A DNA stretch of 64,000 bases from Paramecium tetraurelia (Eukaryota). Both the position numbers and the translations under genes were made by a program. Positions 1,441 through 61,905 of this stretch are shown here, in pieces (within the stretch, counting starts at the first letter, position 1; each line of letters begins with the position of its first letter). The notes under the pieces are model-generated. The model was not told the DNA's origin, made no database searches, and saw nothing but the letters and a program-made list of their open reading frames with translations. The stretch is taken from positions 124,001-188,000 of the forward strand of contig CT868032.1 in the NCBI GenBank assembly GCA_000165425.1, written 5' to 3'.

Positions 1441-4400
1441 ATGTTTGAGAAAATAATCGAGAATCTCCTTTAATCAATTTTAGGAGAATACATTGAAGGT
1501 TTGGATCAACAATCCCTGAAGGTTGGACTTTGGAGTGGAGATGCAAAGATTGAGAATCTGAGGTTGAAACCAGAAGCCTTTATCAAATTAGACCTGCCTT
1601 TTATTGTTAAGTATAGCAGATTGGGAACACTTAATTTAAACATCCCTTGGAAAAATTTAGCCAGTGCTCCTATCAAAGCTAACCTAGATACATTATATTT
1701 AATATTAACACCTCAACAAGCCAGTGATTGGAAATTTGGAAGTGTTACAGGAGCAGATAAATTAATTTAAGTTGATTCATTCAAATAGAAATTACTAGAA
1801 AGAATTGCTAATAAAGAATAATAAGATGGGATGATGCAAAGAATTATTATTAGAGTGATTGAAAATCTATAGATACGCATTTAAAATATTCATATCAGAG
1901 TTGAAGATGGATAAATCAGTTATGGTTTTGTATTGTAGAATTTCACCTTGCTTACTGTGAACGAGTAGGGAGTTGAATAATTTATTGATAGGACATCCAA
2001 TAAAAATTAACTATTGATCAAGAGTTTACAAATCAGCAATATTGGATTCTATTGGCAATGGAAAGGAGGAATTCAATATGATGAGTCTAAATTTTAGGTA
2101 GAAATACCAAAAAATGATTATCTATTTAGACTCTCCTTATAAAGCAAGGTTGTACAACCACCAAAACAGAGCGATAATCTACCAGACTATAAATTTGATT
2201 TGGATTTACAATCATTTGATATTAATTTCTCAAAGCCTTAAGTCTAATAAATCCTCAATCTAACAGACTATTTGAATTCTTACAATAGAGCTAAGATCTC
2301 TTTCTAAAGATAATAGTAAATGATCTAGCCATTGAATGAGATGGATCAAAAGAGAGTTAAACAATTATTGCAATTAGTATAATTAGATAAAAAATATAAT
2401 GATGGACTTAATAAAGAGTAGAAATTAGAACTTTGTGCTATTTTAGAGAAAACTCAGATCAAAGAAATCAAACCGATCGTTTTGGAAGTCATTAAGGAGT
2501 AATAATATGAAGACATGAAATAAAAGGCTCTGAAAAAGAAATAACCATAAGGATTCTTATAGAATTGGTTTGGAAGGGGTAAATAACAGTAATAGAATGA
2601 AACACCTACACTTTTAGATGAAGAATCAGAAGAAATCTATAAATTTTTATAATAGAATTTCTCATAGGATGAATCTTAATAAAATTAAGGGAAGGTGACA
2701 CAAATAGTAGTGAGTGGGAAAATGAGATAAGGAACAATTACTTTAAGTAATCCTAGATAATAGAAGGTGGATGAAATTAAGATTCTGTTTTAAGACTTAA
2801 TATGCGAATTGAAATCAGATAAGGATCTAATATTGGATCTATCTTTAATCGATATGATTGTTCTATTTAATGATTAACAATTCCTTACAAATACAAGTAA
2901 TGATAAATCAAAACCTATATTCTTATTGAATTTCAAAATTATCGAATCCATTACTACTTATATTTAATTAGAAACTAGATCATCTAAATTACGGTTTCAT
3001 CCAGATTTAATAACAGTATTAAGTGACTTTAGTGATGTAGAATTGAAATCAAATTAGATTAAAAATATGGCTGATGACACAATTCAAGAACTTAAACAGA
3101 ATGCTCAAATAGCCTTAGCTAATTAAGTAATTGTAGAAAAGAATAGATGGGTTAATATAACGATGGATCAATTCTATTTTGAACTCCCCTTAAACAATTC
3201 ATAGGAATCCTGGCTATTTTGTCCAGGTTTAGTCAACATTAATAGTAGTATTGTGAATAGTTAAGAATTGTATAAAATTCAACTTTCAAATATTGGATTG
3301 AAACATTAGTCTTAAAATCAATATAGTGTAATTGACAACTTTACCATTGTCCTGGATATCCTATTACCAAATCAAAAGAACTAAAATCTTACTGTGAATG
3401 CCAGTATCCAAGATATTATCACCAATTTGAATCCATAAATATATTAAAAGCTTACTAAGATTGGAGATTGTTTTATTCCAACAGTAAGTGCTGAAGAATA
3501 CAAAAAATAAACTAAGTCGGAGGAAGTTGAGAAAACTAAAATAATAGAGAATGCTATAAAGATAGCCCCACTTTACATAAAGGAAGGTTAATTGAATCAA
3601 TGGGTTAAATACACTTGTGTCTTGAGTGGCTCTTACTTATATTTTTACTCAAGTCCCAAATCGCAATAGCCTAACTTCATTAAATATTTAAAAAATTCAA
3701 ATATTATTGAAAAAGGAATGGATGAATACAAAATGAATGTTCTAGTTGTATAAATTGAAAACAATTAATTTGAAATTGGAGTATAAAATTAAAGTCAAAT
3801 ATAAGATTGGATTCAAAAGATTTCATCATTGAGAGATGAAGAGTTAGAATTACTTAAACAATTAGAAGATAAATAGGAGAAATAACAGATCAAACCAATT
3901 GAGTTTGAATAAATTATCAATTTTACAATATCAGTTGTCTAAATTAACTTATAGGATTCCAATTCTAAGTAATTTTTAGTAATGAAAACGAAGGACTTGT
4001 CATTAAGAATGAAAATACACTCTTAATTCTTATAGGTTCAACTTACTCTTTCAGGATTACAACTTTAAGATAGTCTGAGATAATATCATAATAAACAATT
4101 GGAGAATCTTATTATATCCGAGAAAGAGAATGGAGAACTCATTGAAATACTATTTAATTAAACTAGTAGGAATTCCAAGAAGTATTAAGATATTGATTAA
4201 TAAATAGAATTGAAATTTGGTAAATTGCATATCAATTTTAAAAGTGAGACATTTGCTTATCTATTATAATTCATAAATAGCAATGATAATATTTAGAATC
4301 AATAGGAGAAAAAATTAGATAAAATTGAAAAGGAGTTTTTGGAAGCAGAGAAGCAATTTTTATTATTAAAATTGAATGTGTAAATTAATTAAATCAGTTT

Positions 4401-7400
4401 GTCTATTGTTCATGAAATTACCAAATTGCCATTTGTAGATATTCAGTTTTAAAACTCTTTTATTGAAATGCTTAAATATCAAGATGAATTATAAATGTAA
4501 GTTAATTTAGGAAACCTATAAATTAATGATTTAACTAATCATCCATATACATTAACATAAGAAGAAGATTATCACTTGATTAAATCAAATTAAATTGTGG
4601 GAATCAAATAGAAGGGAGAGTCTTTGCTATTTGTTAAGATCATCTTAATCGAACCATTATCAAAAAAAGCATAATTAAATAGAGATATCATTAGAGTTGA
4701 TGCAAAAATAAGTCAAATTGTGGCTGACTATTAATAACAACCAATTCTAAGGATTATTGATTATATTCAGAATTTATAAGAACCATTCACTAATCCAAAT
4801 TCATTTAAAGTTTAAGGCTATTAAATAGACAATGTTGCGAATCAAAAGAAACCACCAAGTAGAATCACTATTTAACCTTCAAAGGAGGAATCAATTAAGA
4901 TTACATCTAATCCTCCGAGAATGAAGTTAACTGTTCAGATTGACAATCCCTAAATCATCATTAGAAACAAATTCTCAAATGAATTCATGATCATCAATTT
5001 AGGATAAATAAGTGTTGCTAATGAATAATAATAAATCAATTAATTTTTTAAGGAGATATATACAATTTAGATAACATAACTTAATATCATAGGAGAATGT
5101 GATAACAAAAAGGGTGTTATTGCTAGTGATTTCAATTTACTATTGACTGTCACTCTACCTGATTTGGTGTAATATTATAAATAGATCCATAGTAAAGTTG
5201 AAGAAACTATTCATATAAGTTGTGAAATGAGCGAATTTATCTTAAATATTGATAGAAACACTATGAAATTGATTAATAGGTTGGTTGCTTATAATTTCAC
5301 ACTTAATGATTCTTTTAATGAATATGTATTACTCAATTCTGAAAAATCAAATTAAATAAGTTAAGAATAATAGAAGATAATATTAAAGTAGGATGCTGAA
5401 AAGAAAATTAGAAATTAAGATTACTTCTTGAAATTTAAATTGAAGATTGTTAATATTTCTATATTCCTATGTTTACATAGACCTTTAATAAGACTGTCAA
5501 TAGTGGATAGTAATATAGAATTTAATATGAAAAAGGATGATAAAAAGGAGTTGATTATTTAGATATCGTCTTTCAATTCTTGTGTGTATGAATAAATAAA
5601 TGGATATTTTGTGAGTAAGCCTCTAATAGGAATACAGGAGGAAAAACAATATGATAATTTGAATGATCTCACATATTTGATTAAGAATGCCTCGAGTTCT
5701 GAATAGGAGTCAGGTAAAATTGAGATGTACATCAATCCAACATAAAATAAAACTCACAATAAGTTGTATTTAACTTTTGGTTCATTTTTATTAACTATTT
5801 AAACAAAGATCATTTTATAGACTTTGACAATATTTGAGAGCGAGTAATTAAATCCATTTGTAAATGAAGCTTTAAAGGAGTATTAAAGCAGATATGATTA
5901 ATATTTGAGAAGCCAACAAAAGGAGGAAGAAGTGTAACCAACTGATTCATAAATCTTTATTACCTTAGGTGATGTAATAATTGCAATTCCATCGAATGAC
6001 GAATCCATTTTGACATTCACTGGTAAATTCAATATCATTGTGAATACACATGACACTATGAATGCTGATGAACTTCTTTGTATAATCAAAGAGAAAGGAT
6101 TGAATGAATACGATTTGATTGGAATGAACTTCAAAATAAAAACATCTGTATCGATAGAATAAGTTCAAGCATATGTGGCATCAAAGTAATAACTATATAG
6201 TAAATAATTTAATTTACTTGACAACAAGAGATAAATCATTTGGCCATTCACTATGCTCTTGAATCAGAGTTAATAATTAGTATTATCAGAAAATCTGGAT
6301 TCTCTTGTCGAAAAACAAAGCATTAAGTTGTCATTAAGTCAATTTCAATTCAGAATTGCATTCACTGATGTTTTGTTTATCTAAAATCAGATTAATAATT
6401 AATTGTAAATAGTTAATGATTTAACAAATAATGATATAAAATAATAACAGAAGTAAGAGAAAAATCAATAGCAATAAAATAGTTTATAGAATTTTGAATT
6501 AGTCATTGATGGTATTGATGTGATAATTTTGAATGACATAGAGAATTACTATTAGTATATTATGAATTTCAAATTATTTTAAACACAAACCAAATTAGAA
6601 TAGACATCTAGGAATTTTAAATTCTTAATAGAATTACCAATCTAATTGCATTATTTCAATTAAAATATTGGAATTTGGGAACCAATAATTGAAAAGTGTG
6701 TCATATCAATTGTCTATTAAAAAGATTTAACAGGTTTTGATATTGTAGCAGAGAATCAATTAGATGTTCAAATAAAAGAAGGTGTAAATATAAATGTATC
6801 TACTCAAATGATCTTAACTGTTTATTCAGCATTGACTATCTTAACTTAGAAATTACAGGCTAAGGACAAAAATCAAATCAATTGTTAAAATAACTCCTAT
6901 GCTAAATACTCAATTTATAATCTCTTAGGAAGTGATGTTCTATGTGAAACCTAAGATAATACGATTATAATAGCTCAGCATAATGAATAAAAAGATTTTG
7001 ATGTCAAAAATCCTAAATCTAACAATTCAGTTTCCCTATAGATTTAAGGCGATAAAAACCCATTTGAAATACTAAATTGGAATATAGATAAATTGTAATA
7101 GAAAATGAAGAAAATTGGAAATAATAGTCCAGTGCTGATTAAGAACTTTGTTGATCAATTAAAGAATTAGAGAGTGATTTATTTGAGTTCTGAATATATC
7201 TTTGAGAATAATACTTAAACTCATTTGGACATAGTATTCAAGGATTCTAAGGCCAATCTTCATATTTCTAAATTGCAAGCCTATATGTAGGACCAAAATG
7301 CAAGACAAGTAACATGCTAACCTAATTAATATGTGCTTCCATAATTTTTATTATACAGTGATTTTTATATAAGAAAAGCAAACAACAATTAAGAGAAGTC

Positions 7401-10400
7401 ATAAGCCTATAATATTAAGTATTTATAAAAGTGTTTTGAAAATAAGGAAGGTTTGAAACTGTGGTTGAATGAGAGCTTCATAATAACATTGAATGTGCGT
7501 AAGGATCCAGAATTCCTAGGTAGATACATTATATACATCTAACCAAATTTCAGATTTTAGAATTTGTTGCCATTCCCCGTGACCATCACTACATTGTATG
7601 AAACCAAATAGGGAGATGAAACCAAATTACAACCGCTGCAATATTTGGATGAACATCAACTCAAAAGCATTAAAGAAAATCATGCTATGTTAATAACCAT
7701 AGATGCATATAAGCCCTCTTAGCCTATCCCATTATTAAACAGCAGGAACTTCAAATCGTAGCAGAATGTCATCAACTTATTTGGTAGAGAATGGCAAGGA
7801 AGTAGTGGAGGCAAGAGTGAATTAGTTTTAGAATATAATAATACTTTGTTCAATCAAAGTGGTTTATGCAGTGCCGTATTGTATGCTCAAGAATATATTA
7901 GAAATGAAACTTAATATGAATATGTAGTATTTTAAGGTAAGAATAAGTAATACACTTCAATTGGTGGGTAAAAGCTAGGGTCAAAGCAAAGACCCTTGAT
8001 ATTGAACAACACTGCTCAATAATATGAATTAGTGTTTTCAGAGAGAGATACACCTCAAGTGCTTTCATTAACACCTGCCTAAATTATTTCTATAGGTACT
8101 TCAATTAGTGATATTGTTATAAAAAGAAATGAACATTTTTATGTAGCTCCATTAGCTGTTGTATCTGAGATTAAATTAATTTAATAGACTTGCTAAAAGG
8201 TTGTAACAGTTAGAAATAGAATCATTTTAGTCAATCATTCTGAACATTCAATATGCATCAAGTAATTGAAGGCATTTGAAATTAAACCACAAGAAAGAGT
8301 GCCTTTGGAGATCTGTTGTGGTGATAAAGTACCTGAATCAACTGAGGGCATTTATCAATTCCAATTTACTTTTATGGATGATTATAATTGGAGTTGGAGT
8401 GGGCAAATCGAATGTAATATGATTGGTGTTTATTATCAACAATTAAGAAGTCACAAATTCCCTGAGATCAGAAAATTTGCTTAAATTGATATCAATGAGA
8501 GCAATGGAATATTATTTGCAGTTATTAGTGAAACCAAACATGATCAAACACCTTATAGAATTACTAACTTAAGCAAAATGATTCAAGTCACTGTCTTAAA
8601 TATACCTGCTTCTTTAGATTATAACTAAGACTGCTATTTTGCTTGGGATGAACTAAATAAATAGAATGAAGTTCAGTTTGTAATTTGTCCTAAAGTAAGT
8701 TAATATGAGGTTGTTGAATACTAATTTAAAATTGATAAGATTGCAGAGGCTAAATTCTTTGTTATCCGATCTCGAATTCCAAATGATGCAGGCAAGATCT
8801 TTATAAAATTAAAATCAGAAATGAATGGTTTTACCAGACATGCATAATTCTTTGATTCAAGTGAGGAAGAACTTTAGAGATATAAAGAGAATTCAGGAAA
8901 GATAGCAAAAGAACCATAGTAATTGAAATTTGACATTATGATTCCTCAAATTAACATAAGTTTGATCGATAATCATGCTTCATACCCTTAAGAAATAATT
9001 AATATTGTGTTGTACTAATCTGAAGCCATCCTATTGATAAACAAGTCAAACAAAGCAATATTCCAATTTAAATTATCAGCAATGTAGATAGATAATACTT
9101 CTCAATTGCACCCTCTATTTCCTGTTTTATTAACACTACTTCCAAGTAGTAAAGTGAAATAATAATTACCTATTTTAAATGTCTTGATTTAGATGAATTT
9201 GCAGGCTAAACAATTGCAATTGATTGAGAAATTCTCTCTTGAAACTAATCGTTTAGCAATTAAAATCAATGATACAATCATCAAGACTCTACTCAGCACT
9301 GTTAATAAAATAACTTCAATTATTGAAAGTTAAAAATTAAAATTATAATTACAATTATAATAAAAGTTTGATTGGAGGAAATGTCCTTTACCAGATAAAT
9401 TGATCCCAACTTATTTTGGAACTATAACTATTTATCCTATCATAGTCTAACTCACTGTACAATGGGGACGTAAGGACAAGGATCAAGATGCAGATAATCC
9501 TATGTTTACATCACTTTTGTCAGGAGTTGGATTTCAATTAGTCTCTGTTGATGAAGCTGAAATTGTATTGAAAGGAATTCAAATGGAAGATGTTTTTGAC
9601 AGTATTGATGGTTTGAGAAATAATTTGACTAAAAGATATCTTCCTGATATCTACGGATAATTACCTGCCATTTTAGGTAGTTTAGCTGTTCTAGGCAATC
9701 CTACTAAATTATGGAAGAACTTTGTATCGGGCATGTAAGATTTCATTGAAAGACCCATTGAAGGGTTCACTAAAGGACCTCTTGAAGGAGGCATGGGTGT
9801 TATAACAGGAACTACTTCATTAGTAAGTCACACAGTCTCTGGAGTCTTTAATAGTGTTAAGAATGTTGTTGGCACAATTTCAAGTGGTTTATCTAAAGTT
9901 ACAATGGATGACAATTATCAATAGCAACGTTAAATCTAGAATCAACAATAGGCTAGGAATGTCAGTTCAGGTATATAGGAAGGATCTGTATCTTTGGTTA
10001 AGGGAGTGGCTGGCGGCATAGCTGGATTCTTTAGTAAACCTATTTAAGGGGCTCAATAGGATGGAGCATCTGGTCTATTGAAGGGATTGTGGCAAGGAAC
10101 ATCAGGATTAATCATCAAGCCTGTGGCAGGAGTTTTAGATGTCATCTCAAAGACATCTGAAGGTGTTAAGAATCAATTATCCTCTGATGAACAACCTAAT
10201 AATACTAGAATTAGATATATGAGACCTTTCTATGAAAGCGATGGATATTTTAAAGAATATAATTGGGTTGAAGCGGAATGCTATGAAGTAATTAAAGGAA
10301 TCAAAAAAGGCAAATATGAACAACACAGATTGCTTAGAGTTGTTAATATGGAGAGAGATAAGAAAAGTTTTGGATTAATTCTAACCGACACTAGTTTAAT

Positions 10401-10636
10401 CTTGTTTGATTTGGATTTACATTTAAAGCTTTGGTCCATTTTGTATGAGGATATAGAAAATATTGTTTTTAGTGGAAATGTGATATAATTGAAAAACAAA
10501 AAATCCAAAAGGGCATTTTAGGTATTTTTATATTCATATGATAAAGGGTAAATCGATTGCTAGTTTGACAATGGCTTCACAAAATTAAAGTTAATAAATA
10601 ACAGAACAAATTAAATTTATGATCCAATAATTGTGA
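1441..10636 (+). CDS. VPS13: VPS13/chorein-family lipid transfer protein (about 3,050 aa)
   Basis: Chorein-N (MFEKIIENLLQSILGEYIEGLDQQSLKVGLWSGD...LNIPWKNL), WEPIIE, VAB-like QNLLPFP, QIDN, LGNP and a Gly-rich ATG_C region (GLIIKPVAGVLD). Same frame at all points checked from 1441 to 10521; one 25-nt intron at 10522-10546; TGA at 10634-10636. Confidence 0.95.
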
Positions 10637-10667
10637 CATAATTATTATATATATATATTTTAAAAAA

Positions 10668-13600
10668 TCAAATTTAAGAATATAATTAGATTATTTTAGT
10701 ACCGGTTAATGCTAAAGTTATCACTTAACATAGTGAAACCTAGATATCAATATAACATTACCTTGTAAACAATGTACAATATTCCCAAGGGATAAATCTA
10801 ATGATTATAATCAAAATATTTATCAACTATCCATTATCTAGGTATTTTCTTATCTCCTATGTTTAAGCTATGTTCATTTATTGAGATCTCAATTAATACT
10901 GATGAGTTCATCATTATATCAATCTAAATAATATTATAGATATACTAGTTCTAATGCAAATGTATTTTGTTCTTCGGATTGTATTTTTAATGATTTAGTT
11001 GATTGTATCTTATCAGATATCAGAATGTTTTCACTTTCTAAAACTTAGATCAGAATTTATTAAAATTAAATTAGATTTCTCAAATTCACATTATCCTAGA
11101 TATGACATTTATTTTAAACAAACAATTGTTGAATTTCAGCATAGCATTCTTATTTCAATTTAAGCAACTCTTTTTTAGTAGATTTTTATTCCACTAAATT
11201 ATCCATCAACACTTCTATTTAATCAACTTCATAATATGTTTATGTGCCTTAACAAACAAACATATTCTCATATTTATTTTAATCTCTTTTCTATTGAATT
11301 TCAAGTTCAGTATATAATTTCTTATATAATGCTTCCTCAACTCCAATTAATACTTTCAATTACTAGTTCTTACTGTGTGTTAATGCATATTATATTTCTA
11401 ATTTTTCCTTTTCCTCATTTTATTCCTAAATTTCCTTCTTAATCTATAAGATCATATGTTATTTTTCTCCTTTTTCTAATTCCAAACTTTCCAATTCCTC
11501 TTAAATCGAACTTACAAGCTTTCTTATTTCATTTCTTTCTCATTCTCTAAATTCTCCACCTATTCTGTTAATTGTCTACCTTCTCGTGAATAAACAGCCA
11601 TCCTATTCCTCAATTATAACATCTTCTCATCCATTTCTACTAAATTCTTGAATAACACTTAAACATAGTCTTTCTTTTCCTTAATTCTATTCCTCGAAAC
11701 TATTTCTTATTCATTTAACTCCTAATTGTCCAAATCTAATTAGTATATCCTTTATAGAATATTAACTTTATCACTATCTAAATCTGATTGCTTCTAAAAT
11801 AATACCTCTAATTCTTTTTCTATTTTCTCGACTGATTACCTTCTTTAATCTAATTCTATTGCTAATTTATGCTCTTTTTCTGCCCAATCCTATAATTTAA
11901 TAGCTAATTCATGATGTCTTTCAGCAGTTCTCTTTAATTTCGATTATAGATCATCTAACATCTCACTTTCTTTTGTAAATTTATCTTACAATTCCAATAA
12001 CAATGGATCATCATCAAAATAAAAAGTTGGTTGAATAGTCACTCTGGATTGATGCATAGATAATTATTATAATTATTACTCCAATATATCTAATTTCTTA
12101 TCTTTTTCTTTAATTGTTGATTGTAATTCTTCTAATTGAGTCTTAGTTCCTTCAATCTATTACAAGGTTTAGAATATTGGTTGACTCTGTGATTACACCA
12201 ACTTCTGCAAATCATCCTTTAAATTCAGGTTTTTAGTATTTAAACTATTTATTTATTAAGATAATGCATCTTCAGTTACTTCTACCTCATTAGGATCTGT
12301 TACTAATGATTTTTATTGTTTTTTTTTATTCAACTATTTCTTCACTTCCACTACTTACAAATTTGTTACTTCCAAATCCTTCTTCAAAGTTTCTTTCTTC
12401 TCTTAGTACTATTTCAACTCTTTCTCTTTCAATTAAATCACAGCCTCCAACATTTTAGTATCATCATCCAATTTTCTAAACTGATCATTTAGTTAATTTA
12501 AAATTCTTCAATTTCTACTTTATTTAAAAATTCATCTCTTCCTCTCTTACTTCAATATGATACACCTCTTAACTGATTTCTGTCAATTGCTCCTATTCCT
12601 TCTTGATTTCCTCTGATAACTTAGATCTCTATTTCTCAAATTCTTAGATCTACTCTTACTTTTCTCTTATCTCTCCCTGAATATTATAATACTACTATTT
12701 AAGTTTCAACAATTCTTCTTTAGATTCATTCAAAGTTCTTAGTTCTTCATCCTTATTTCTTAGCATCTCCTCTAAATTAGCAATATCCATTTCAGCCTTT
12801 GCTAAGTCATCCTCAAATTTACTCCTCTATTCTGACTTTATTTAAAAGTCTCTTTCCAATTTACTTAGATTCTAATCTAATTCAGACATCCTCTTTTTAA
12901 TTTCTTCCTCTTCCTTCTCGTAAAATTTCAATTCATCCTCCAACTAATTGAACTTCTACTTTTAATCATTTACTTTTTATTATTTCTAATAAACTAATCC
13001 TGCATACTATTAAACCTACTCTTCCTTCTCAAATACTTCCTTCATCAATCTTTCCATATCCTTATCTAATTTTTCAATCTAATCTAACTGATGCAAATGT
13101 TTCATTTATTAATCTGTAAGTTTATTTAAATTATTCTTCTAATCTTCTATATCCAATTGAATTTTCTTAATCTACTCCTATCTTTATTCCTTTTCTTTAT
13201 TTTACTTTTCTAAAATTTAAATTTATGCCTGAGTTGCTTATTTGTTTCGATCCAACTCTTATTAAATCCTATCAGCTTTATCCTATATTGCATTTTTCAA
13301 TGTATTTTCTTATTTTATACTATCCTCTAATTTTGCCCTTAAAGCCTGCAATTCAACTAATTATTTCTCTTGATTTTCTGTATACAATTTCAGATAATTG
13401 ACTTCTTAAATCACTTGATTCTTTTAATCTAGTACCTTCTATTATGACTTCTATTATTCAGATAAATCCTCAACACTCTAGTCATATTATTATTTGGTCT
13501 ATAAATATGATCTTTGTATTTCTTCCTTCTAAGGTACAATCAACAAAACCTATTCCTTTTGAATTTGTAATTCTTCAATCAACTACTCTAATAACTACTT

Positions 13601-28437: not shown

Positions 28438-30471
28438 ATGTAGTTATTTTCATATGCAATTATTGTTCCATCCTCTATTTCAATTATCTATATGCTTATG
28501 ATGATTCGACGCTATTGTTACTTGAAATCGGACATAGTTGCTAATGAGATTAGATTAAATTGTTCTCTCAAGTTTCGCGTGTTTTTATTGATTTGTGATA
28601 TAGGTATACAATCACATATTAATAAACAGTCTAGGCATTTAAGGTACTCAATTTGGAATGATTTTTCTATGCAAATATTGTGAGGAATATCAAGATTACA
28701 TTTTGATGGTACTCCTAATTACTATGATTACTTAATTGCTCTAAATATTCCTGATGGTACAAAAACAATGAAATTTAGATCTTTGAGTATAAGAAACGAG
28801 TTCCATTATATTTTGCTCATAAAATTTATTGGATAGCGAGTTGGATTGTGCTTCTTATTATAACCAGCTTGATCTTATATTATTATGGCTATTTAACCAA
28901 CATGCCTTATCTAATTTTTGGTAGAATAATCTTTATATCAATTCTTTTGATTTACACTCTCTTTGTTAGAAAGTAAGACTTAGCAGAATTTGAAGATTTG
29001 GGATTTTTTAATAGCGAATTACCAGATGTCGACATTTCCTCATTGGAATAGAAACTGAGGATTTCAACTTTAAATAGTATGATTTTATGATAATTTTAAG
29101 ATTTTCAAACTCAATTTTTTTCAGTGGAACTCTAAAAGATTTGGAACATTGTGGACAATGATATTGAAATTAAAATGAACATGTAATTAAGAATTTATTA
29201 ATTTAGTCATTTGATTGATTAAGAAAAGAGTATAAAATTGAAGAAGAGAGTCTCTCAATTATTTGAAATGCACCATCAATTAATCATAGAATGTTAAGCC
29301 TATTTTGAAATGCACAATAATGATTTACTCTAATTAGAATATTTGATTCGGTAGATCTCAGATAATACAGACTCGCAATTAATTAACTACATACAAAAAT
29401 ACTTCAATGTTCTGATTAGCAAGGTTGATTTATTATCCAATACATTTTTGGACTTCATTGAATTTCCTTAGCAAGAAAGAGAATTGTTGAATGATATCAA
29501 ATTATAACACCGACAACTTCATAAGTCATCTCTGATTAAGAAGCAATAAACCAGTCTCCCTTATAAGAAATGGGAATTGCACAAACCCTATATTCCCTAC
29601 ATGAATGTGAAAATCAAGGAACATCAAACAATCAAGCAACATGGAGATTCCTACATCTAGTATTCAATAGTGATCACAATTAATTAAGAAACTCTAATGT
29701 CATAGAAGAGATTTAGAGAGTTTCATGATTTGAATGAATAATTAAAATAATAAGGAATCAAGTACTCATCCTTATTCCCACAAAAGAGTATTGGAAAGCT
29801 AACTGAAGTGGATTTAGAGGAACGTCAAAAAGATTTAGAAATCTATTTAAAAGTATTATTAAACGACAGAAAGAACCATAGTTGTTTGCCATTATTCAAA
29901 TTTGTAGGCTTATCTGCAAATTAAGATCCCTTTTTAAAGAAATAATATTCTCGTATGCAAAGAGATGTAGAGTAAGTATCTTAATCTACAGTCAAATTCT
30001 TATAATATGACGATGCTTAGGATCAAAATGGAGATAAATATTATAAATATCAATTTTAGATTATCAACCATAATATCTTTAATTAATATCACATCATTTC
30101 TAAAAGATACTCTTAATTTCATGAATTACACAGGATTTTAAAAAAGAGGTAAACTTATATATCTATTAAACTATAATAGGGTTCAATTCTTGCCTTTATT
30201 ACCATAAAAGTTAAGTGCATTGTAACAGAATATTAATCCAAATCAAAGAAGTGGACTGCTCCTCTAATATCTGAATGAATTGATAAAGAATCCATTAGTT
30301 TGTGAGAACCCTCACTTTAGATAATTTATTGATATCCCTTTTTTTGATTTTGAATCTGATGAAATAACCTTATCAGAAACAAAGAGCTAGTTTAATCAAA
30401 TCTTTAGGTCATAAGGAAATGATTCAATAATTAAAAAGATAGATGATATGAAGATAAGATTATGGGATTGA
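28438..30471 (+). CDS. Membrane protein with N-terminal TM segments, helical linker and two PX (phox) domains
   Basis: Several hydrophobic N-terminal segments; PX1 KRFREFHDLNEQL...FPQK...LEERQKDLEIYL; PX2 KRYSQFHELHRIL...LPLLPQK...FRQFI; at least three short introns; TGA at 30469-30471. Confidence 0.82.
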
Positions 30472-30770
30472 ATGCTTATAAATTTATATCTTTTAAAGAA
30501 TGAAGAATTTTAAAATACATTTATATTTTGCATAAAAGAATTACTATAACTTGTAAAATACAAATCTAGTTTGCTTTCTTTTTTCTATGGCCAATTTAAG
30601 TTGAAAATACCCATTTAGAAGGTAGAATTCTAGATTTAGATATACCAATCTTTTCAAGACTGATAGTATGATCATTATCCTCAAAATTTAGATAATTATT
30701 TCTTAATAAAATCAAAGTCTTTAAAATGATATTATTTATATTAATGATTAAAACTCTAGCAAATTCTAAA

Positions 30771-31515
30771 ATGCCTTAAATAATTTCATAGCTCTTTCAA
30801 GAATGGTATTTATAATAGTTTGAAAAAAAAAACATTTCAACGAGATAATAAAGCATTATATGTCAAATCTTCAACATTAGGTAAACAGCTGATGACATTT
30901 TTGAATTGTTGATTTCAGACTCGAAATGTATTTTCCCTGCCAAAATATACAAGTTTGTATTGCAATAATGCTGTGATAAAATTAATAAGAATGTGAAAAA
31001 TGAATTAAAGATGCTGAGAGTAATTTCAATCAAAATATAAGGGAGCTTTAGTAGTATTGAATTAGATCGATTTCTTGAGAGTAAAGAAGGAATTCAGATT
31101 TGAAATTTTGATATTGGACATGAATTATATTGATGGATTGGGAGGAGCAATTGTCAATGAAATATAATTGTAAACTAAGAGACCAGCCATTATTAAATTA
31201 GAAGAGAGATCCTTGCCCCTCTATGAAGAATTCTCTAAAATTTTCGAAAAGATAATGGAGATCGAATCGAATCAATTACATGAACTGTCAATTAAAAAGA
31301 AAAATGAATAGAAACAAGCCTTATCAGAAGACGAGTAGATGAAGATAACAATAATTTAATAAGAAATGCCAAAGAGCCAATATCTGGTGTATGATGCATC
31401 CCTCTACCCAGAGTAACATTTTTTGGAGAAACAATTCAAAGCTTAATTCAAGTTTGTGCCTTACATAAGTCTCAAACTCAGTTCAAGGGGAACGAAGAAA
31501 ATAGAATAACAATGA
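30771..31515 (+). CDS. Putative TPP1/Est3/TEBP-beta/p50-like OB-fold telomere protein (240 aa)
   Basis: ATG30771 (alternative ATG30726), 22-nt intron GTAATTTCAATCAAAATATAAG at 31020-31041, TGA at 31513-31515. Motif series ICQIFNI...LLISDSKCIFPAKI...LRGALVVLNQ...FEILILDMNYIDGLG. The gene model is solid; the family call is pattern recognition only. Confidence 0.6.
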
Positions 31516-31583
31516 TGACTATTAATATAATATGATATATATGATGTAATTCGTTTCAACCCTCTGCACCAAATATTCATTGT

Positions 31584-34505
31584 TCAAACATCTAATTGTA
31601 AATCATTTTGGAATGTTCCAATTTACATGATTGACGAAGGAGGTTATCCGATATTGATAACATTGGATTGGTCAATCTCTTGTAAATCTTAATTTCTCCT
31701 AATTTCATTCTAATCGGCAACCTTTATGAATGCCTGAGTATCAGGTATAAAATTGAATCCAAATTCACTGTTCCTAACTCCCTTTGTTAATGGGAACTCT
31801 CCCAAATCATGATCAAATTGATTAAGGTTATCTACAAGAGAATAAACAAAATATGGATACCCGTCTGAGCATAAGAATACACACTCTTTTCATCGTTGTT
31901 ACCATTCATAGTGTTATTACGTCTTTCTGGGATAAACTTTTAAGGTGGTCTAAATTTCATCTGACTGGATTTAAGATTAGGCAATGAACCCTCCATCAAC
32001 AAGTCCAGATCCTTAAAGTGATTTAACATGTTGTTCCAAAGATTATCCTATCAAATAGATCACATAAACATACTTTACTCAATACTCTAGCATTTCCAAT
32101 GACGATCAATCCATATCTGGCTCTGGTGATGGTGACATTCAATCTTCTTGGGTTGGTCAAGAAACCAATGCCTTGAGTGTCATTTGAACGGACACAAGAA
32201 ATGATAATGAAATCCTTCTCTCTACCTTAGAAGCCATCCACAGAAGCAACTTCGATGTCTCTATATTGATTGTAAGGTAATTGTCCATTCCTTTATAGAT
32301 ATGAAAGTATGTATGTGCGTTGTCCTTTATAGGGAGTGATGATTCCAATTTTGTTTAATTTAACGGTGTTCTGATAAAGGTAATAAACTGCCTATTCTAC
32401 AGCAACTGCTTCTTGGGTGTTAAGATATGAGGTGCCTGATGCAGATAGTTACTCTTGGCCAGTTACATTAATGAATATCATAGGCTTTTGCTTATTTGGC
32501 CAAGGGAAGTTGCCAGAATGAGTTCTATCACTTATAGTGACTCCATTCTGCAAGGTACCTTCATAAAATGTGTTGGATGGGAAGACAGTTAATTCAGGGT
32601 GCATACGATATTGAACTTACAATCTAACAGGTCTTATTCCTAATTGTACTAATCTTTCAAACAAACTTCTGTCCAAGCCAACCGAAGCTGCTTCTCTACT
32701 CTAAACAACAGGACCCAATTGTCTATGATCTCCTACCAAGATTACATGTTTGGCTCCCTTTAACATTGGTAATAAGCACTCTGGCTCTATAGCTTGAGTT
32801 GCTTCATCAATCAAAACAAATAAGAATCTCATTTCTTTAAGTCTTTTATCAGCTGATCCAATACACGTAGTACATATGATATCAGCTTACTCAATAATTT
32901 CCTTCTCTGCCTCATCTCTCATTCTAATGAATACTTATTCATCCTTTTAATCTAATTCTCCTTGTTAATCTAACAATTCATAAAATGCTTATAATTGATG
33001 ATATTATGGTATATCCAAACTTCGCACCTAACTGTGCAATGTCAGAAATTCAATATTTGTACTAACACTTTCTCTTGTTTTACTACAGAGTCTGACAACT
33101 TTGACACCTGTTTTGTTAATCTTTTCAGCCAATTAATCAACAACAATGTTACTTGGTGCACAAACCAAGATCTATCCTCTTTGTTTTTGTTTTTCCATAG
33201 CCTTCACTAATTGATAAACAATAGTGGCACTGGTAACAGTCTTACCAGTTCCAGGTGGACCTTATATCAATGACAATGGAGACTTCAAAGCTTTCTTAAC
33301 TGCATCTGCTTGATAAACATTTAAATCCGGTAGATTTGGAGCAGATAGCTTCTGTGGAATACTCTCCACTGCTGTTGGAGGAGCTAAAGTATCGATTCTT
33401 CCCAAGATCATCTTATACAGATAATTACTAGTGGAACTACTTTGTGTAAGAAATGTCTTTAATCCTATTTGCATTCTTTTAAAGGTTGTAGACACCCAGA
33501 TGCATTCAACTGTATACCCTTCCTCTATATTATTAGGAGGAGGATCATTCTGATGTAATTCCAAACAGATTTCCTCATTATTAATTACTTTGATCACAGT
33601 TCCTTTTGATTACCAATTGTAATTCCCATTTTTTAAACTCAACTACATCTCACTTCCCAACAGAGTATTTGTGTCAAACTCTTCTCTGCCTCCATATAAA
33701 AAGTAGGCCAATCTCTTCTTCTTCAAACTCAAATCCCATTTCACTTTCACACTTTATACTACTTGTCCTTCCTTCACTTACTTATCTTGCTCTTCTTCCA
33801 ATTTGACTAGTGGTGAAAATACTTGCTGATAGTGATTAGCGTCTTTGTATCGCAACTACACTTCCTTTAGTTATTGATTTGGACCTTTTCTATCCAAATC
33901 GTCAAATTTCAATCCCTCCTTTTTCTTCCTTTCCTCCTCATACTGATTTATACGTTCCAAAGTAACCATACGTGACTAAGATCATCTCTATAATGAATTA
34001 CATTTATTTTATCTCCCTAACCCAATAACCATTCCTAAATACTCTTGTCCTTGATTAGTGGCTAATAATCATTTGAGTCCCAAGTGATCTCTCCCAATTG
34101 TCTCAATGGGAGACAGCCTCGGCAAAGAATCAAAATGTTTTCTTCTTCTTCCACCCTCACTAAAAATACTCAAATACTATTTGTACCATTCACTTGTCCA
34201 AGAGTGAACAAATTTTTCTATTCACAACCATAGCACTCAATAGTTGTTATTTCCACCTTGTTTTTGCTATGCAAACTGATTTAACTGTGCTTATTCTTAA
34301 TCAAGTGAAGTATTATGTGTGATCCGCTCTTTGTTGCACTGTTGCAGTACCATCTCTTGCATGTTAAACATTGTGCAACAGCATTTACATCAGATTATAA
34401 ACAATAACTAAATAATAATCGCTCAACTACTTACTCGCAAGAATGTTCAGCTACTTGAATTTGCTACTCCGTCGTTCTTCTAAATTTTTCAATTGTTTCT
34501 TCCAT
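31584..34505 (-). CDS. UPF1: Regulator of nonsense transcripts 1, SF1B RNA helicase
   Basis: N-terminal CH zinc domain (HSCDYC...[10 protein letters not shown]...SHIILHL), [61 protein letters not shown]; several short introns; TGA at 31584-31586. Confidence 0.97.
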
Positions 34506-40002: not shown

Positions 40003-43000
40003 TCATCCATATTCATAAAAGTAAAATAAGCATCTAATAGGAGTAGATATGCAATAAAGGAATTAAATAATCGCGTTCAGTAAAATTGCATTAAATACAA
40101 CAGTAATGGCAATAAAAGGAACAGCAATCATCAAAATGATATTTTAGTTGATTGGTGAATCAATTTCTGATTTGCAAATCATGCCATCTTTACTTAAAAA
40201 TAAAGAATCTTAGCATTTTGTGCAATTTTCTAGAGATGAGCACTCCAAACATCCTATCGAACAATCAGAGCAAGTTTGTTCATCTAAATATTTCCCTTTA
40301 GGACAATCTGTTACACATTTCGAATCATAAAGAGTTAAGCCATTTTTGCAGACATTGCATAGATCTTAACTTTAACACTTTTTGCAATTCTCTGGACATG
40401 GCTTACAAGTAGAATCTTTAGTTAAGAAGTACTCCATTTCTTCACATTAGAGGCATTTGTCCTTCTAACATATTAAACAATGCTTTTATTGACACTTGAA
40501 ACACTCTCCATTATCTAAATAATATCCATACTAATCGCATTAGGTGCATGAGTCCTTTGTGCATGTTTGACATCCCTATTTACACTATTTGCATTCGAAG
40601 TTGTCAAGGTAAAAGCGAGTAGGTTAGCATTTAGTGCATTGATCTTTACTCCTGCAGGTTAAGCATGGGGATTAACACTTCGAGCATTGGTTTTAATTTA
40701 GATAAAAGGTGTCATCAATACAGGATTCACATTAATCAGAAGTGCAAAGAGAGCAATTGGGTTGACATTACTTACATTCTTATTTATCAATGTAATATTT
40801 ATCTGGACACTAATAACAAAATTCTTTATCGCAAGTTTAGCAATTAGGTTTGCATTATAAACAGTTAATGCCCTCTTGATAATACCCTGATTTACATTAC
40901 AAACATTCCTAATAATTGCATCTCAAACAATTTTAGTTACATGCTATGCATTTCCCTTAATTGAGATAGTAATTAGCTAAACATTGGACACAGGCTTATT
41001 CAAGATTACATCTAATACAACCTTCGCCACAAGTCTAACAAGTCTCAAAATTGCAATTGAATTAACAATATTAGTTTTAACATAGCTAACAATTACCATT
41101 TTGATCCAAATAATATTTGTCTTAACATATATTGCATTAAGAGTCTGTGCACTACTAACAATTTTCCCATTTGGTAGAACAAGAATTACAAGTTATGCCA
41201 TCAAAGTAATAAGAAACGTTGCAGGATTGACAATCACTTGATGAGGAGCACATATTGCAATTGTCTTAACAACGCTTGCAATCATGATTTTCAATATAGG
41301 TACCTAAAGGACATGATTAGCACCCAGATTGATTACATGCTTAACAGGGTTGATTGCATGATTTACAAATGCCTGAGGATAAATACACTTATGTAGTTGA
41401 TACGCATTTTTGACAAGAGTCTTTTGAATTGCATTCTAGACAATTGGTGGAACAAGGTTCACACAATTGATTTTAATTGATGAAGTATCCTGCTTAACAT
41501 TGAGAACATTAATTATTCAAACACTTTATGCAATTATCGAGTTGACAAGTTTGACAAATACCATTTGGAGAGGCTTAACCTTCAATACAAGTCAGACATT
41601 TATCAAAGTCTGAACATTATTTGCACGGTGATACACAATTAAAACATCTGTGTCTGTGTTTGTCCAAGTATTGATTGGCCGCACATTCAGTACAAATATC
41701 TGACTATTCATCACAACTTTTACAATTAGGATTGCACCATAAGCATTTAAGTTACTCCCAATCATAGTATTGACCTTTGGGACAAGTGCAATCCTTACAA
41801 AGTATGCATATCTATGTTGCCTGAATTAATTAAAAGATGTATTCATTTACACACGTTTTACATGAATGATCTGGATTTTCACAACTTTTACAATTTTCTG
41901 TTGTTGTGCATTTATAACAATTCACGATGTCAACATTACCAAAACTAATTTCGTAATAATGGCCATCTTTACAACTGAGACATTGTGTTTCGGAGTCTCT
42001 GCAGGTTCTACAGGGAGATTTACATTCGAGACATTGCCCATCTTTATAAAAGTAACCATCTGCACATCCATCAGGACATGTAATTTTCTAATTAATGAAT
42101 TTACAAGTGCCTTTACAATATTTAGGACATTATTCGCATTTGTTTGGAGAAGGACTGTATGCATTGTTCTTACATTCAGTACAATATTCATGTGAAATAC
42201 ATTGACTGCATCCAAAAGGACAAACTAAACATGAATTGTTTTATAAGTAGTATTCACTTTAACATTTTAGACAAGTAGTGCTATTACTGCATTAAGTACA
42301 ATATTCAATATTCAGTGAACAGTTAACACATTAACTATTGGACAAATAAGAACTATCTTAACAACTAATGCAGATTTCAGGAGAGTTCTAACATGTCTTA
42401 CAATTATTACTGCACTTTAAACAATCTCCATCCTTCCTAAAGTAACCTAATGCACATTCAATGCAATTTGAAGATGTAGTTGTGCAAGTAGCACACTTTA
42501 AATCGCATTACTAGCATTATTTCTGAGTTAAATAGAAGCCTAAGAAGCAGTCTGTGCATTCATCACGACCATTTTCACAAGATTTGCATGTTTTTGAACA
42601 TGGATGGCATTTATTGTTGTTTAAATACTTACTAATACCACATTTGTCGCATGTGTCCTATTCGTAACAAGTGACACATTATTCAACTTTGCAACTTTAT
42701 GATTGGCATTTCGATTCGTAATTTAAAACGTAAGTGGATTTACATTTCGTGCATTTATCTTAGCTTTCACATTCTGCACAATTTGAACGACATTGTGCAC
42801 ATTATCCACTAGACAAATAGTATCCTGAATAACAACTCATGCAAGTAAACTAATTATCTTTACATGTTTAGCAATTACTGGAACATAATGAACAGTTTGA
42901 TCCATTCATGAAGTATCCATCTAAACATGATTAACAAGTATGTGTGTTTGTACATTAATTACATGAACCTTAACAATATTAACAGGTGACATTCTATACT

Positions 43001-44955
43001 AGTTTTTGTTAACATTGAGTACAACATGATGGACAAGATGTTTCACATATCTTACATAATCCTGTTAGATTATCTAATACATAGCCTACTTGACATTCCA
43101 GACAAAGCTTCTTTGAAGTGCATTTCTTACATGGAGCTTCACATAAAACACATGTGTTTGAATCCAAATAATAGGAATCATTGATACATGATGAACATGT
43201 ACTAGTTGTATTCACACAAGTATAACAAGGTGTTTAGCATGATACGCATTTATTTTGAATTAAGGAGAACCCAGGTTTACAACTATAACATTCAGACGCT
43301 GATCCAGAGCAAGATGTGCATTGAGAATTACATGCTATACAATTCATTTTATCAACAAAATAACCTGTGTTGCAAACATGACATTGAGATGAATTTGGAC
43401 AAGTCTAACAATTTCCGATGCATTTATTGCATTATCCAATTGATTCATAAAATTCATCAATACATCCAGTGCAAAAAGACTCTGAAGTACAACTACTGCA
43501 TTAGTTTTTACATTATGTACATCCGTAACTCGAATTTACATAATATCCTTTCTGGCTTTCCAAACATTTGCTTGCATTTTCACATAATTTACAGCCCGGT
43601 ATGGAAGTGCATGATCGACATTCAGAATTGGTCAGAAAGTAACCATCCAAACAACTAGAACATTGAGTTTCACTTTAGCATGTTTTGCATGGAGAAATAC
43701 ATTCCTTACATGTGAAGTTATCTTTGTAGTAATTTCCAATGCAACTCTGGCATTAAGTATCACTCGTACAGGTTGCACAGGACAGAGGACATTTGAAACA
43801 CTTTTTATTAGATTCATAATATCCATCATCGCAAACTTCAACAATACTGGTGCATGTAGAATTATCAGGCTGACACAATAGACAAACTTCCTCAGTACAA
43901 CCAATAGCGTTTTGATTCTTGCCTTTATAGTAGCATTGATTTTCAGTACTGAGGTCACCCTTGCAAACACAAGTTTTGGTTGTTGAATCCCATTCTGTGT
44001 GTGGTTTACACACTTTACATGTTTCAATATTGTTGTAGAAACTACAAATTGAGCAAAGTGGGTCCTTGCAAAACCCAATTAATCGAATTGCATAGTCTAC
44101 CAATGTTTCTATAATATTAATGGCAACGAAGTTATTGCTTTCAAAAGTCAAAATGAAGGATATTGCTAAATCCTTCTGATTTTACACGTTTAATAGGGTT
44201 CTTTTGATCCCCATTAATATAACTAAGGTATTTTATCTTATATATTAATAAACATCAACCGTATATTTATTATTACCAAATGTCTTAATACTCATATATT
44301 TATCGTATGTTTTATCATTGTATTTGGCAAAATCAAATACAACTATCACACTCTCCTCAATCCGAGTGCCAATTACCAGCACGTTGTCTACTTTAATTTA
44401 AATGATGTGTCGACCCTCAGAGTCAAAAAACTACTAATTGTGTTATTCAACCTTAAGGGGAGTTTTTATATTATCCTAAAATTGTATGGTTACTGTGTTC
44501 ATGATATTGGTATCAAAATTTGTTATTTGAGTATTTTAGAAAGGTAGAATATTACTCATATATTTAATAGGCCCATCCTATTACCGAGATTTTACAAACA
44601 CTGTAGCTAAGTCTACATCATATACGCTAAGCATACACTCTTAGGACTGTTTTATTTCTTAATAGGACACATCGCAAACGCATTTTCCATCTTTGAGAAC
44701 TCTATGATTCTCGCTATAACAGCTTAAGCAATAATTTCTTTCATTAAACTTACAATCCTTGCAATTTCTATTACATTCATAGCATTGGCTTGATTCAATT
44801 CTAGTTAGCTCTTTGTTTGAACTTGAACATTAACACAGTCCATCTACTAAATATCTGGTCGGTTGGCATTAATTACAATTGCTTGCCACACATATCTTAC
44901 AAGTGTTGTCGCAAATACCCATTGCATAATCTAAGAATACAATGAACAAAATCAT
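40003..44955 (-). CDS. Cysteine-rich (furin-like / CXXC repeat) type-I membrane surface protein, about 1,650 aa
   Basis: Signal peptide MILFIVFLDYAMG; dozens of CxxC-x4-8-CxxC-GYY/F repeats; a Cys-poor insert at about 44100-44620; C-terminal TM IILMIAVPFIAITVVFNAILL; frame consistent with ORF-track fragments. Confidence 0.9.
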
Positions 44956-57360: not shown

Positions 57361-57858
57361 TTATTATATTATTATAAATCACAAATGTATCGATTTATTA
57401 TATACTTAGTCTGAATTTAGAAATTAGGTTCTTTTTTTAATCAAATTTCACATTACTTAATGATTTCACCGAAATTCCCATCCAAGTTCATCATACATTG
57501 TTCAAATATAAACATGTGTGAAAGTAGAACAAACAGACATTATCCCAATAGTTCTCTTTATCATCTATCAATGCATAAACTAACTGGATTTCAAAAAAAT
57601 TAATTAATTGATCACTTTTTCATTTATTTTCTAAATATTTGATACTGATATTAAATTTGTTATAGAAATTACAAGGAGAAAAATACTGTTAAAAGATAAT
57701 TATTTTCCATCAAATTAACCACATTAAAAGTGTGGACTTCTAAAGTTGTAACATTCAGTTGAACTAACCAGTGTTTTGGAATGAAAGTGCTAAGTAGAAT
57801 TTATTTCTAAATTGAGACTCATAAAATGGAAAAAAGAAAATAAATTTAATTTACATAA

Positions 57859-59331
57859 ATGGGAATAATCATAGTATTAATCTAATTCATCGTAACTGCC
57901 TTAAGCTAAACTAATAATTCAATCGATTGCAATAAATATTTCTATAAATTTGGAACTACTGAGTCACCTCTTGTTTTTAGTGGAGATGTAGTTTATATTT
58001 AGGAATCTCAGCAGGTCTAAATTAATGCGAAATATACTGATGTTCTATTTGAAGATCCAATTTATTTTGGTTTTATTGAAGAAGATGGAAAGCCTCCAGA
58101 AACAACATGTCTAAAACTCGCAGTTCATCGCTTAGATAATACTCCTTAAATAATATAAAGTTTATCTATTATAACTTCAAATAATATCATTAATTAATGG
58201 AGACATTATTCGTTTAAATTACCATTACCAAAATTAAATAATCAAGATGTTTCCACCAAAAATTAAAAAATTCGTGCATATAATGGATCCTATTCAATTA
58301 ATTTTGAATCAACTCAGCAAAGAGATTTTAAATATGTATTTATCTTTAATTTCATTATCACTGTCGATAGTCAAACTGAGCTCCTTATCGATACCAAGTT
58401 TTAAACTTAAATTGAAATTAATTAATCACTTATCATACTTCCTGTATCTAAACTATTATGGTGTGCTGACCTTGCTTGTGAAACTCATTTGAATGAATCT
58501 CCATTTCTCAAATTGAATGATTTATTTGCTATAAAATAAGTAATCGTAGATAGTCAAATTAGTAATTAAATAATAGAAAATATTAAAGTTGAAATTATAG
58601 GTAAATCACTTTATCGGAAAGAAAAACCAATGAATTTGAATAATAAAACTCCAGGATAAGTTATAATTTAATTGAAAGTACCAATATATTGGAAAAATGT
58701 AAGTATCAAGGTTACTTCAGCAATATCAGGAAAACCTTTTATTTATGGTTTTGAAAATACTATTGATACTAGCTTTAATTCTCTTGATTAGTCCTGTGTT
58801 GATGGAACTCAAATTAAATCAGTTGACTCTGAATTAAGATGGTGCTCTGATATTACATGTTAAAAAATTTTGGAATAAACTCCGAGTTTGCACATTAATG
58901 ATTTTGTTTATATTTAATAATTAGTTAATTGCTCAGCCTGTCAAAACTACTTTTTGACTCATACTGAAGTATGGTTTGCCAATGGTGGATTAAATAAAAA
59001 AACAAATTTAGTTGAAATTATTAATAATACCAAAGGATAAGTTAATATGAAATTAAAAATTGATGTAGTTTGGAATAAAGTTTCAATTAAAGTTACTTCA
59101 TTTTTAAGTGAAACCTCAGATCAAGATGAAGACGAAGGGTCAAACTTACTTGACTCTTTATAAGCCACCCTTGAAATCGAATGTACAAAACCTGAAGGAA
59201 AGGAGGTTTGTGCAACTTGCGAAGAATAATGCAACATAAATGGGTATTCCGATGATACTTGCGGATTTTGCAATAGTTATGGATTCTTAACATTTTTAAA
59301 CATGATATTATTGTTTGCCTTAACTATTTGA
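57859..59331 (+). CDS. Secreted/GPI-type surface family member 1 (490 aa; domains A-B-B' + Cys cluster + hydrophobic tail)
   Basis: Intronless open frame; signal peptide; family motifs CNKYFYKFG, FSGDV, YFGFIEEDGK...CLKL, QWRHY, two WCxDxxC modules, C..C...C...G...D.C..C and a hydrophobic C-terminus. Confidence 0.85.
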
Positions 59332-60084
59332 TCTATCTATATATCACTATATTATTCATCTTCAAAAGTAAAGCCTAATGAATCAATTATATCATTTAAC
59401 TTTTAAGAAATTTTTAAATTATATTTTCTATTCACAGAATTATTATTTTAATTGATTAACAATCATTTTTATATTAATAATTTTACAGATGTCTATGATG
59501 TCTATTTAGAATTGCGACTTAGCTTTTCTTTTTGATAAAAGGGTGTATGAACCTAAATTAAGAATCAAATTCATAAAAACACTTTGATAAAATAATGTGA
59601 TGATCTTTAATTAATCATTCTGTAAAATAAAAAGAAAACAAACTTCAAATTGTTTTAAATCTGAAAATTATATTCACTCTATCACTTGGAATGTTGGATA
59701 AATTTAATTATTGAACAATAGCAAATCAAATTATTTGTTTAAGTAAAATAAATAAAAAAAGTTTAATTGAGCTTGAAAATAAAGAAATTAATAAATGGCA
59801 AACATTATAAGCATAATTAATGCTGGAATACCTATAAAAGTTACAAAGAATACCAACTAGTAAATCACGAATATATATATTTAAGTATATAAAAATAAAT
59901 TCTTTCATGCAAGTATTATAATCAATTTTTATTTGAATCTTCTATTTTTCGTTTGTTTTTTGTTTCATTAAGTTTACCTTTCAACGTATTGAAATAATTG
60001 TTATAGTAAACTAAATAGAATAATTACTAGAAATTTAGTATTTCTAAAGAGTGATAGTAATAAAGTTAAGATTAATTAATCTCA

Positions 60085-61233: not shown

Positions 61234-61905
61234 TTGGTTTTATCTAAATTTTATATATTAAAAACAAATATTTGCAAATAATCATTTATCAGTTTATTGT
61301 TGAATAAATTATAAAAATAAAATTCTACTTTGAAAGGTACTATTGAAGTTTTTAAAATGCTTGCCAAAATGTGTTAAAAGATGCTTTTGAGATCATAAAA
61401 TGGACTAAGTACTTAAAAACGAGGATATAAAGATTAAATCTTTAGTAATTTTTAATTCATTTAAATAATAGAGAAATTTCATTGAAATATATAGATTTAT
61501 AACATAATATACATTCATTTATACATATGGTTGTAAATGCAATAAGAATTATGAATAATAAAAAATAATTATGTTTAAGATACAATACATTATAAGGTAG
61601 ATAAAATTATAACAATTCTTGCTTTCTTGAAATGGCTACTATCCTGTAACAATGTCATCTATATTTTGCAAATTTATAAAATTAACTCAATAGATTTTAC
61701 TATAGAGAATGACTTATTCAGCTTTATTTTGAATATTAAAACCAGAATATATTTACTAAATAGTTCACCCTTATTTTGATTTGAAATTGAATCTTCAGCT
61801 ACTTTAATTTAATGATATTGAATTTTTTGAAGTAAGAAAGGCTTCTATAAGTTAGGAAGAATAATGAAGATAATAGTATGATTTGATATGATATACATAA
61901 TTGAA

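Follow-up and report, generated by a model that had tools for sequence, protein, structure and literature searches.

In each sexual cycle of Paramecium, thousands of programmed chromosome breaks are healed with new telomeres. Beyond TERT, a single POT1 homologue and the telomerase RNA, no telomere or telomerase accessory protein is known from this genus (PMC3558436, PMC4122937, PMC5855555, PMC11206666). Paramecium telomerase makes mixed TTGGGG/TTTGGG repeats, according to the accessible part of a 2018 review (PMC5855555), and a 2024 review, as far as its available sections go, regards the telomerase partners of Paramecium TERT as still to be found (PMC11206666). A literature search, with subscription-only papers outside its scope, returned no paper naming a Paramecium TPP1/TEBP-beta and none mentioning the gene, protein or UniProt identifiers of the locus described here.

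The closest described systems belong to the TPP1/TEBP-beta/Est3 class. The accessible text of Aeschlimann et al. (2014) describes the TPP1 domain as usually N-terminal and followed by a long domain-free tail, and raises horizontal acquisition of the class in some ciliates as a possibility (PMC4122937). Est3 and TPP1 have an OB fold and a TEL patch in common (PMC7338525, in the part available). Swart et al. (2013), in the sections available, detected TEBP_beta in neither Paramecium nor Tetrahymena and only one TEBP-alpha/POT1 homologue in Paramecium (GSPATP00001065001), and described the TEBP-beta paralogues as extremely divergent (PMC3558436). In Tetrahymena, the closest organism, the functional TPP1 equivalents are Tpt1 and p50. 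Tpt1 was found biochemically, as a partner of POT1a, after threading had given no known fold (Linger et al., 2011; PMC3204076, accessible part).

The locus described here lies in the window, the whole 64,000-nucleotide stretch of P. tetraurelia DNA that we analysed, and was originally predicted to hold a hidden gene for an OB-fold protein of the TPP1/Est3/p50 telomerase-recruitment type. The putative architecture of its product, an N-terminal OB domain before a tail, resembles that of TPP1-domain proteins as given in the available part of PMC4122937. Spirotrich TEBP-beta (Oxytricha/Sterkiella/Stylonychia) also comes from ciliates and combines an N-terminal OB domain with an unannotated tail; it is the candidate's nearest language-model neighbour (0.94-0.97). 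Both are divergent, the rapid change of TEBP-beta being reported in the accessible text of PMC3558436, which also gives its paralogues 387-1399 aa against 249 aa for the candidate. Like Tetrahymena Tpt1, for which the available sections of PMC4122937 report the same, the candidate has no Pfam-detectable TPP1 or TEBP_beta domain. Yeast Est3 lacks a POT1-type partner (PMC7338525, in the part available), whereas the candidate has an extra tail of ~120 residues. The OB domain of human TPP1 (ACD) is 12-15% identical to the candidate in structural alignments; the representative of the chordate TPP1 cluster in the ESM Atlas has 589 aa, and the candidate gives no sign of a TEL patch or TIN2-binding end, its model confidence being too low for surface analysis.

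Gene model, transcription and relatives

The gene, GSPATT00034061001, is real, expressed and conserved in the genus. It occupies a + strand frame from ATG 30744 to TGA 31515, minus a 22-nt intron at 31020-31041, and is read in the ciliate code (code 6):

30744..31019, + strand: coding exon 1, residues 1-92, from the probable start ATG 30744 (translation identity, N-terminal conservation, start of the X3 contig)
31020..31041, + strand: intron, 22 nt, GTA...AAG (X3 contig, four orthologue models, TGA in the retained frame)
31042..31515, + strand: coding exon 2, residues 93-249 (stop TGA 31513-31515; spliced translation)

In a script comparison, the spliced product from ATG 30744 (249 aa) proved the same, residue for residue, as a protein already in the P. 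tetraurelia annotation (GSPATT00034061001 / XP_001431983.1 / A0C1B8_PARTE), which is named only 'uncharacterized'. The gene had been called invisible; this holds for the bacterial-code ORF track, but the identity to an annotated protein means that it is not hidden from public annotation. The same identity marks the window as P. tetraurelia macronuclear DNA. The window has ~28% G+C, and open frames appear only under the ciliate code. Translation table 6 yields two + strand ORFs in different frames, 30726..31103 and 31120..31515, which are united by excision of 31020-31041. The intron reads GTAATTTCAATCAAAATATAAG (22 nt, GT..AG), and its retention stops the frame at TGA 31101-31103; a premature stop on retention is the rule for short Paramecium introns. 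The exon junction reads ...KMLR/GALVVL..., so that the LRGALVVL element does arise on intron removal, as had been proposed, and the translations of the two exons reproduce the originally predicted peptide exactly.

That peptide began at ATG 30771, which is codon 10 of the frame opened at 30744. The true start is probably ATG 30744, 27 nt upstream. We prefer it because the nine additional residues, MIKTLANSK, are conserved (8-9 of nine positions kept in three aurelia orthologues, four of nine in P. bursaria), because every annotated orthologue begins at a matching start, and because the X3 contig begins at 30742. The gene, its code and its single 22-nt intron therefore stand as originally described, whereas the start moves to 30744 and the length from 240 to 249 aa.

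Transcription was followed across 30300-32100 in a contig set (X3) and in three samples of raw oligo-dT stranded RNA-seq (X21-X23) with the same species label. An X3 contig of 1012 nt spans 30742-31775 and omits exactly 22 nt at 31020, which is the spliced form, and four orthologous gene models from other Paramecium species have the same exon junction. Together with the reading frame, these data establish that the intron is spliced. Few raw RNA-seq reads cover the site (58-nt reads) and none is gapped (0 of 3 in X22, 0 of 1 in X23, no covering reads in X21); the raw reads neither confirm nor refute splicing at 31020-31041. Over 30727-31519, X21-X23 reads have a mean depth of ~0.4-7 with the first mate always on the minus strand, as expected of a + strand mRNA. 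For the convergent neighbour at 31520-32068, reads reach a depth of ~4-42 and their first mate maps to the plus strand. The opposite first-mate strands show that the two genes are transcribed from opposite strands, the candidate gene being the weaker of the pair in these samples. A search for its expression timing in autogamy found its identifier absent from the searchable supplements of PMC3091696 (three files) and PMC5485702 (one file); fuller expression tables may exist.

Relatives were found only in Paramecium, in four aurelia species and P. bursaria. With exon 2 as query, a word-index search yielded 28 candidates, two of which reached E ≤ 0.01. These two are unnamed orthologues with the same junction, one from P. 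pentaurelia (P0003; 250 aa, 92%) and one from P. sonneborni (P0004; 252 aa, 84%); the 90% cluster of P0003 includes the P. octaurelia protein (P0007) and GSPATT00034061001 itself (P0006). With P0003 as query, phmmer searched 1.84 billion cluster representatives and returned two proteins at E ≤ 0.001, the query and a hypothetical protein of 209 aa from P. bursaria (P0005). BLASTP aligned the P. tetraurelia and P. bursaria proteins at 33% identity over residues 2-140 (E 6e-23), with nothing significant beyond residue 140. A three-sequence profile reached E ≤ 1 with three of 2106 candidates, all from Paramecium; the P. bursaria protein as sole query found itself alone among 58 candidates; and none of 346 pattern matches in JGI metagenome contigs was confirmed. 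The representative phmmer search and the profile and P. bursaria-query searches showed no similarity to Tetrahymena proteins. The word searches, which left out the 'longer' and 'shorter' length classes, could have missed fused forms; the representative search covered proteins of any length. The protein searches found one protein per species, P. tetraurelia included.

Residues 31-125 are identical at 91-95 of 95 positions among aurelia species and at 33 of 95 in P. bursaria, and residues 151-200 at 34-46 of 50 among aurelia species. On these alignments, the conserved unit is the ~140 N-terminal residues, and the protein of 249 residues is, as judged from the searches, Paramecium-restricted and fast-evolving. 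A C-terminal motif common to the aurelia and P. bursaria tails was considered and rejected: its local alignment score of 28 was matched by 537 of 1000 shuffles, and with the other orthologues the tail alignment score was reached by 36, 414 and 360 of 500 shuffles.

Family searches and predicted fold of the N-terminal region

A comparison with Pfam TPP1, proposed alongside the original prediction, came out negative. None of the five Paramecium members matched TPP1 (PF10341) or TEBP_beta (PF07404) at E ≤ 10, and the exon pieces and the five proteins matched no OB family at that threshold, Rep-A_N, Stn1 and Ten1 included. Since Tpt1 also fails family HMMs, this test is weakly diagnostic for the TPP1/TEBP-beta/Est3 class. 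The best Pfam matches, none near its cut-off, were DUF5759 (E 0.034), DUF643 (0.051), eIF3_N (0.074) and H2TH (0.74). The family profile gave no match at E ≤ 10 against PDB sequences, and the PDB sequence searches matched no telomere protein.

We judged the resemblance of residues 106-170 (window 31081-31275) to the Fpg/Nei H2TH domain (PF06831) to be due to chance. Its Pfam score of 10.3 bits lies below the cut-off of 34.7, the phmmer matches to Arabidopsis-type Fpg in the PDB (E 0.05-0.1) were obtained with aurelia proteins only and are absent in P. bursaria, the signal is lost with the family profile, and the segment overlaps predicted strand beta5.

Structure was predicted with AlphaFold in two jobs. 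Job 1 used an alignment of three sequences with the P. pentaurelia protein first, and of its five models only the top-scoring one was taken further (mean pLDDT 44.8, with residues 41-100 at 60-65; the other four, 32.6-35.1). Its elements, H10-29, E38-49, E52-58, E63-69, H70-76, H84-91, E95-105, E112-121, H153-182 and H215-226, describe an OB barrel preceded by an N-terminal helix. Job 2 used an alignment of five with the window's own protein first (mean pLDDT 40.9); here residues 33-90 are helical (pLDDT 53-67) and only the beta4-beta5 hairpin is retained. The disagreement indicates that prediction is unstable at such shallow alignment. The parts of the protein, as predicted, are as follows:

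30771..30830, + strand: predicted N-terminal amphipathic helix, residues 10-29 (H10-29 in job 1, H10-28 in job 2)
30834..31140, intron inside, + strand: core, residues 31-125, putative OB fold beta1-beta2-beta3-alpha-beta4-beta5 (job 1 model, OB-only matches, conservation)
31141..31512, + strand: C-terminal half, residues 126-249 (pLDDT <50 in both models, more variable, predicted long charged helix at ~153-182)

The order of elements in job 1, a helix, three strands, a helix and two strands, agrees with the one originally proposed; in job 2 the N-terminal half is helical. Compared with the PDB by Foldseek, the OB model gave 33 matches at E ≤ 1e-3, of which ~30 were listed, and all those listed are OB folds; the helical model gave none, its best match having an E of 0.39. 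In a hydrophobic-moment scan of aurelia and bursaria columns, a weak test, beta periodicity is favoured at ~34-45, 61-67, 91-102 and 106-115, whereas 10-24 and 67-80 favour alpha periodicity; the pattern loosely fits an OB topology. We favour the OB version because of its OB-only PDB matches, the hydrophobic periodicity and the OB-family language-model neighbours. Residues ~31-125 thus probably form an OB fold, a reading supported with low confidence.

The product could instead be a genus-specific protein that has no OB fold and is partly helical, in which case shallow alignment and ciliate composition would have produced the OB model and the language-model neighbours artefactually. The helices of job 2 have a pLDDT similar to that of the OB model, the alignments are only 3-5 sequences deep, and there are no sequence matches outside the family. 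Against such a protein stand the 33 PDB matches of the OB model and the periodicity of its strands and helix. So do the ESM Atlas queries with the P. pentaurelia and P. bursaria proteins, in both of which ten of the ten best family-bearing matches fall in one family or clan with the best match, as is also seen for a third of shuffled proteins. We consider a non-OB protein unlikely.

OB class and proposed function

The OB model was matched to TPP1 and Est3 by Foldseek, as the original prediction would have it, but other OB domains rank above them. The best rows are Teb1 OB-B (1.4e-4), Rfa1-N and RPA70N, with target TM of 0.55-0.64. TPP1 appears as 7qxa_O (human telomerase; 3.7e-4), 5i2x and 2i46, with target TM of 0.42-0.52; Est3 2m9v (1.1e-3) and TPP1 2i46 (1.2e-3) narrowly miss the cut of E ≤ 1e-3. 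Also listed are chain C of the yeast telomerase holoenzyme, Stn1-Ten1 and the anticodon domains of Lys/Asn-tRNA synthetases. The matches listed by Foldseek or VIA include no chain of TEBP-beta or p50, which is not evidence of absence. Applied to this model, structure comparison cannot separate OB classes.

The sole signal that discriminates among OB classes is the ESM Atlas. Both homologues score highest with a ciliate cluster of 56 members annotated TEBP_beta (34%) and TPP1 (21%): 0.95 with 203 of 256 features for the P. pentaurelia protein and 0.97 with 214 for that of P. bursaria. A second ciliate cluster, 92% TEBP_beta, follows at 0.94 for each (195 and 196 features). An Ascomycota Est3 cluster (TPP1 60%) matches the P. 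bursaria protein at 0.94 (199 features) and is not among the matches listed for the P. pentaurelia protein. For the P. pentaurelia and P. bursaria proteins, respectively, the chordate TPP1 cluster scores 0.89 and 0.83, Rep-A_N 0.88 (174 features) and 0.90 (176), and HROB 0.81 and 0.82. In calibration, a score of at least 0.95 is reached by ~1 in 100 shuffled proteins, and at least 170 shared features corresponds to nine in ten true family members; the recognition value of the P. bursaria protein, 1738, lies below the 2300 at which high scores count as strong. The best-scoring ciliate cluster may be the protein's own, and ciliate amino-acid composition could pull matches toward ciliate clusters. 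Because the two query proteins are homologues, their results are not independent.

These matches bear directly on whether the candidate is an RPA70N-like protein-interaction OB domain, a free-standing adaptor of replication, repair or checkpoint pathways that binds peptide motifs and has no specific telomere role. RPA70N is the first domain of the ~600-residue RPA1 and is followed there by three more OB domains, and we know of no stand-alone RPA70N family. The candidate is not part of a multi-OB RPA1, lacking the three further OB domains, and has no Pfam Rep-A_N (PF04057) match. In the Atlas, both homologues score lower with Rep-A_N than with the TEBP_beta/TPP1/Est3 clusters and share fewer features with it (174-176 against 195-214). 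We regard an RPA70N-like adaptor as improbable. A small subunit of an RPA- or CST-like ssDNA-binding complex (Stn1/p45, Ten1/p19, RPA32/Teb2, RPA14/Teb3), acting through heterotrimerisation and not through telomerase recruitment, is very unlikely.

In our judgement, the chances are evenly balanced that the candidate is a small protein of the TPP1/TEBP-beta/Est3 class, in which an N-terminal OB domain would contact telomerase and a variable tail would bind the POT1 homologue. The originally proposed TPP1/Est3/p50-type OB domain is consistent with one OB model and with the Atlas neighbours, but it has no sequence match and is at odds with the helices of job 2. By analogy with the TPP1/TEBP-beta/Est3/p50 class, the OB domain itself would not bind DNA and would instead offer a surface to the TEN/IFD region of the telomerase reverse transcriptase; this contact with TERT would recruit telomerase and raise its processivity. 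The G-strand overhang would carry the single Paramecium POT1/TEBP-alpha homologue, and the variable C-terminal half would tether the candidate to it. We infer the partner-binding role of the tail (residues 126-249), and likewise, by analogy, the TPP1 class, the partners and any function at telomeres or in adding them de novo. A more specific proposal, which we hold to be somewhat less probable, is that the protein is the long-missing Paramecium TPP1/TEBP-beta orthologue, bridging POT1 and telomerase at macronuclear ends and during de novo addition at fragmentation sites.

If true, the assignment would bring into the TPP1/TEBP-beta/Est3 class a lineage in which profile methods fail, and would fill a gap stated in print. 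It would also bear on whether the class is ancestral in ciliates: under the more specific proposal it would be, though undetectable by sequence in oligohymenophoreans, and would not have been horizontally acquired by spirotrichs, the possibility raised in the accessible text of PMC4122937. If the protein were instead another OB adaptor, it would be an ordinary orphan OB protein.

Neighbouring genes in the window

A gene for a UPF1-type RNA helicase (31577-33969, - strand; AAA_11, AAA_12 and UPF1_1B, E down to 6.5e-66) converges on the candidate gene. Strand-specific coverage flips between the bins 31459-31519 and 31520-31580, and the two 3' ends therefore lie almost side by side. At 32044, loose read ends point to an intron boundary in the UPF1 gene. 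In its last exon, 32024 T>C and 32030 G>A are carried by a third to three quarters of RNA reads (14 of 24 and 14 of 18, respectively, in X21) and by the X3 contig as well; they could reflect strain variation, or a duplicate gene whose reads map here. On the upstream side, two overlapping + strand ORFs at 29175-30471 lie in different frames and each contain a PX domain (E 1.2e-12 and 3.1e-5); they probably belong to one PX-domain gene, with a short intron between them. The neighbouring PX-domain, UPF1 and kinase genes give no functional hint for the candidate.

Farther away, the window holds an ATP-dependent DNA ligase gene (172-1422, + strand, 416 aa; DNA_ligase_A_M, DNA_ligase_OB_2) directly upstream of a VPS13-like gene (1441-10884, 3147 aa). 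Three paralogous ORFs at 57781-63069 (516, 382 and 387 aa, on mixed strands) match no Pfam family. Their N termini and tails are hydrophobic and they share a C-terminal motif rich in cysteine, which gives them the appearance of secreted or surface proteins clustered locally. A 1650-aa protein with cysteine repeats, encoded at 40003-44955 (- strand), has a match to the Giardia VSP family (E 2.8e-28), and its gene has the look of the Paramecium surface-antigen type.
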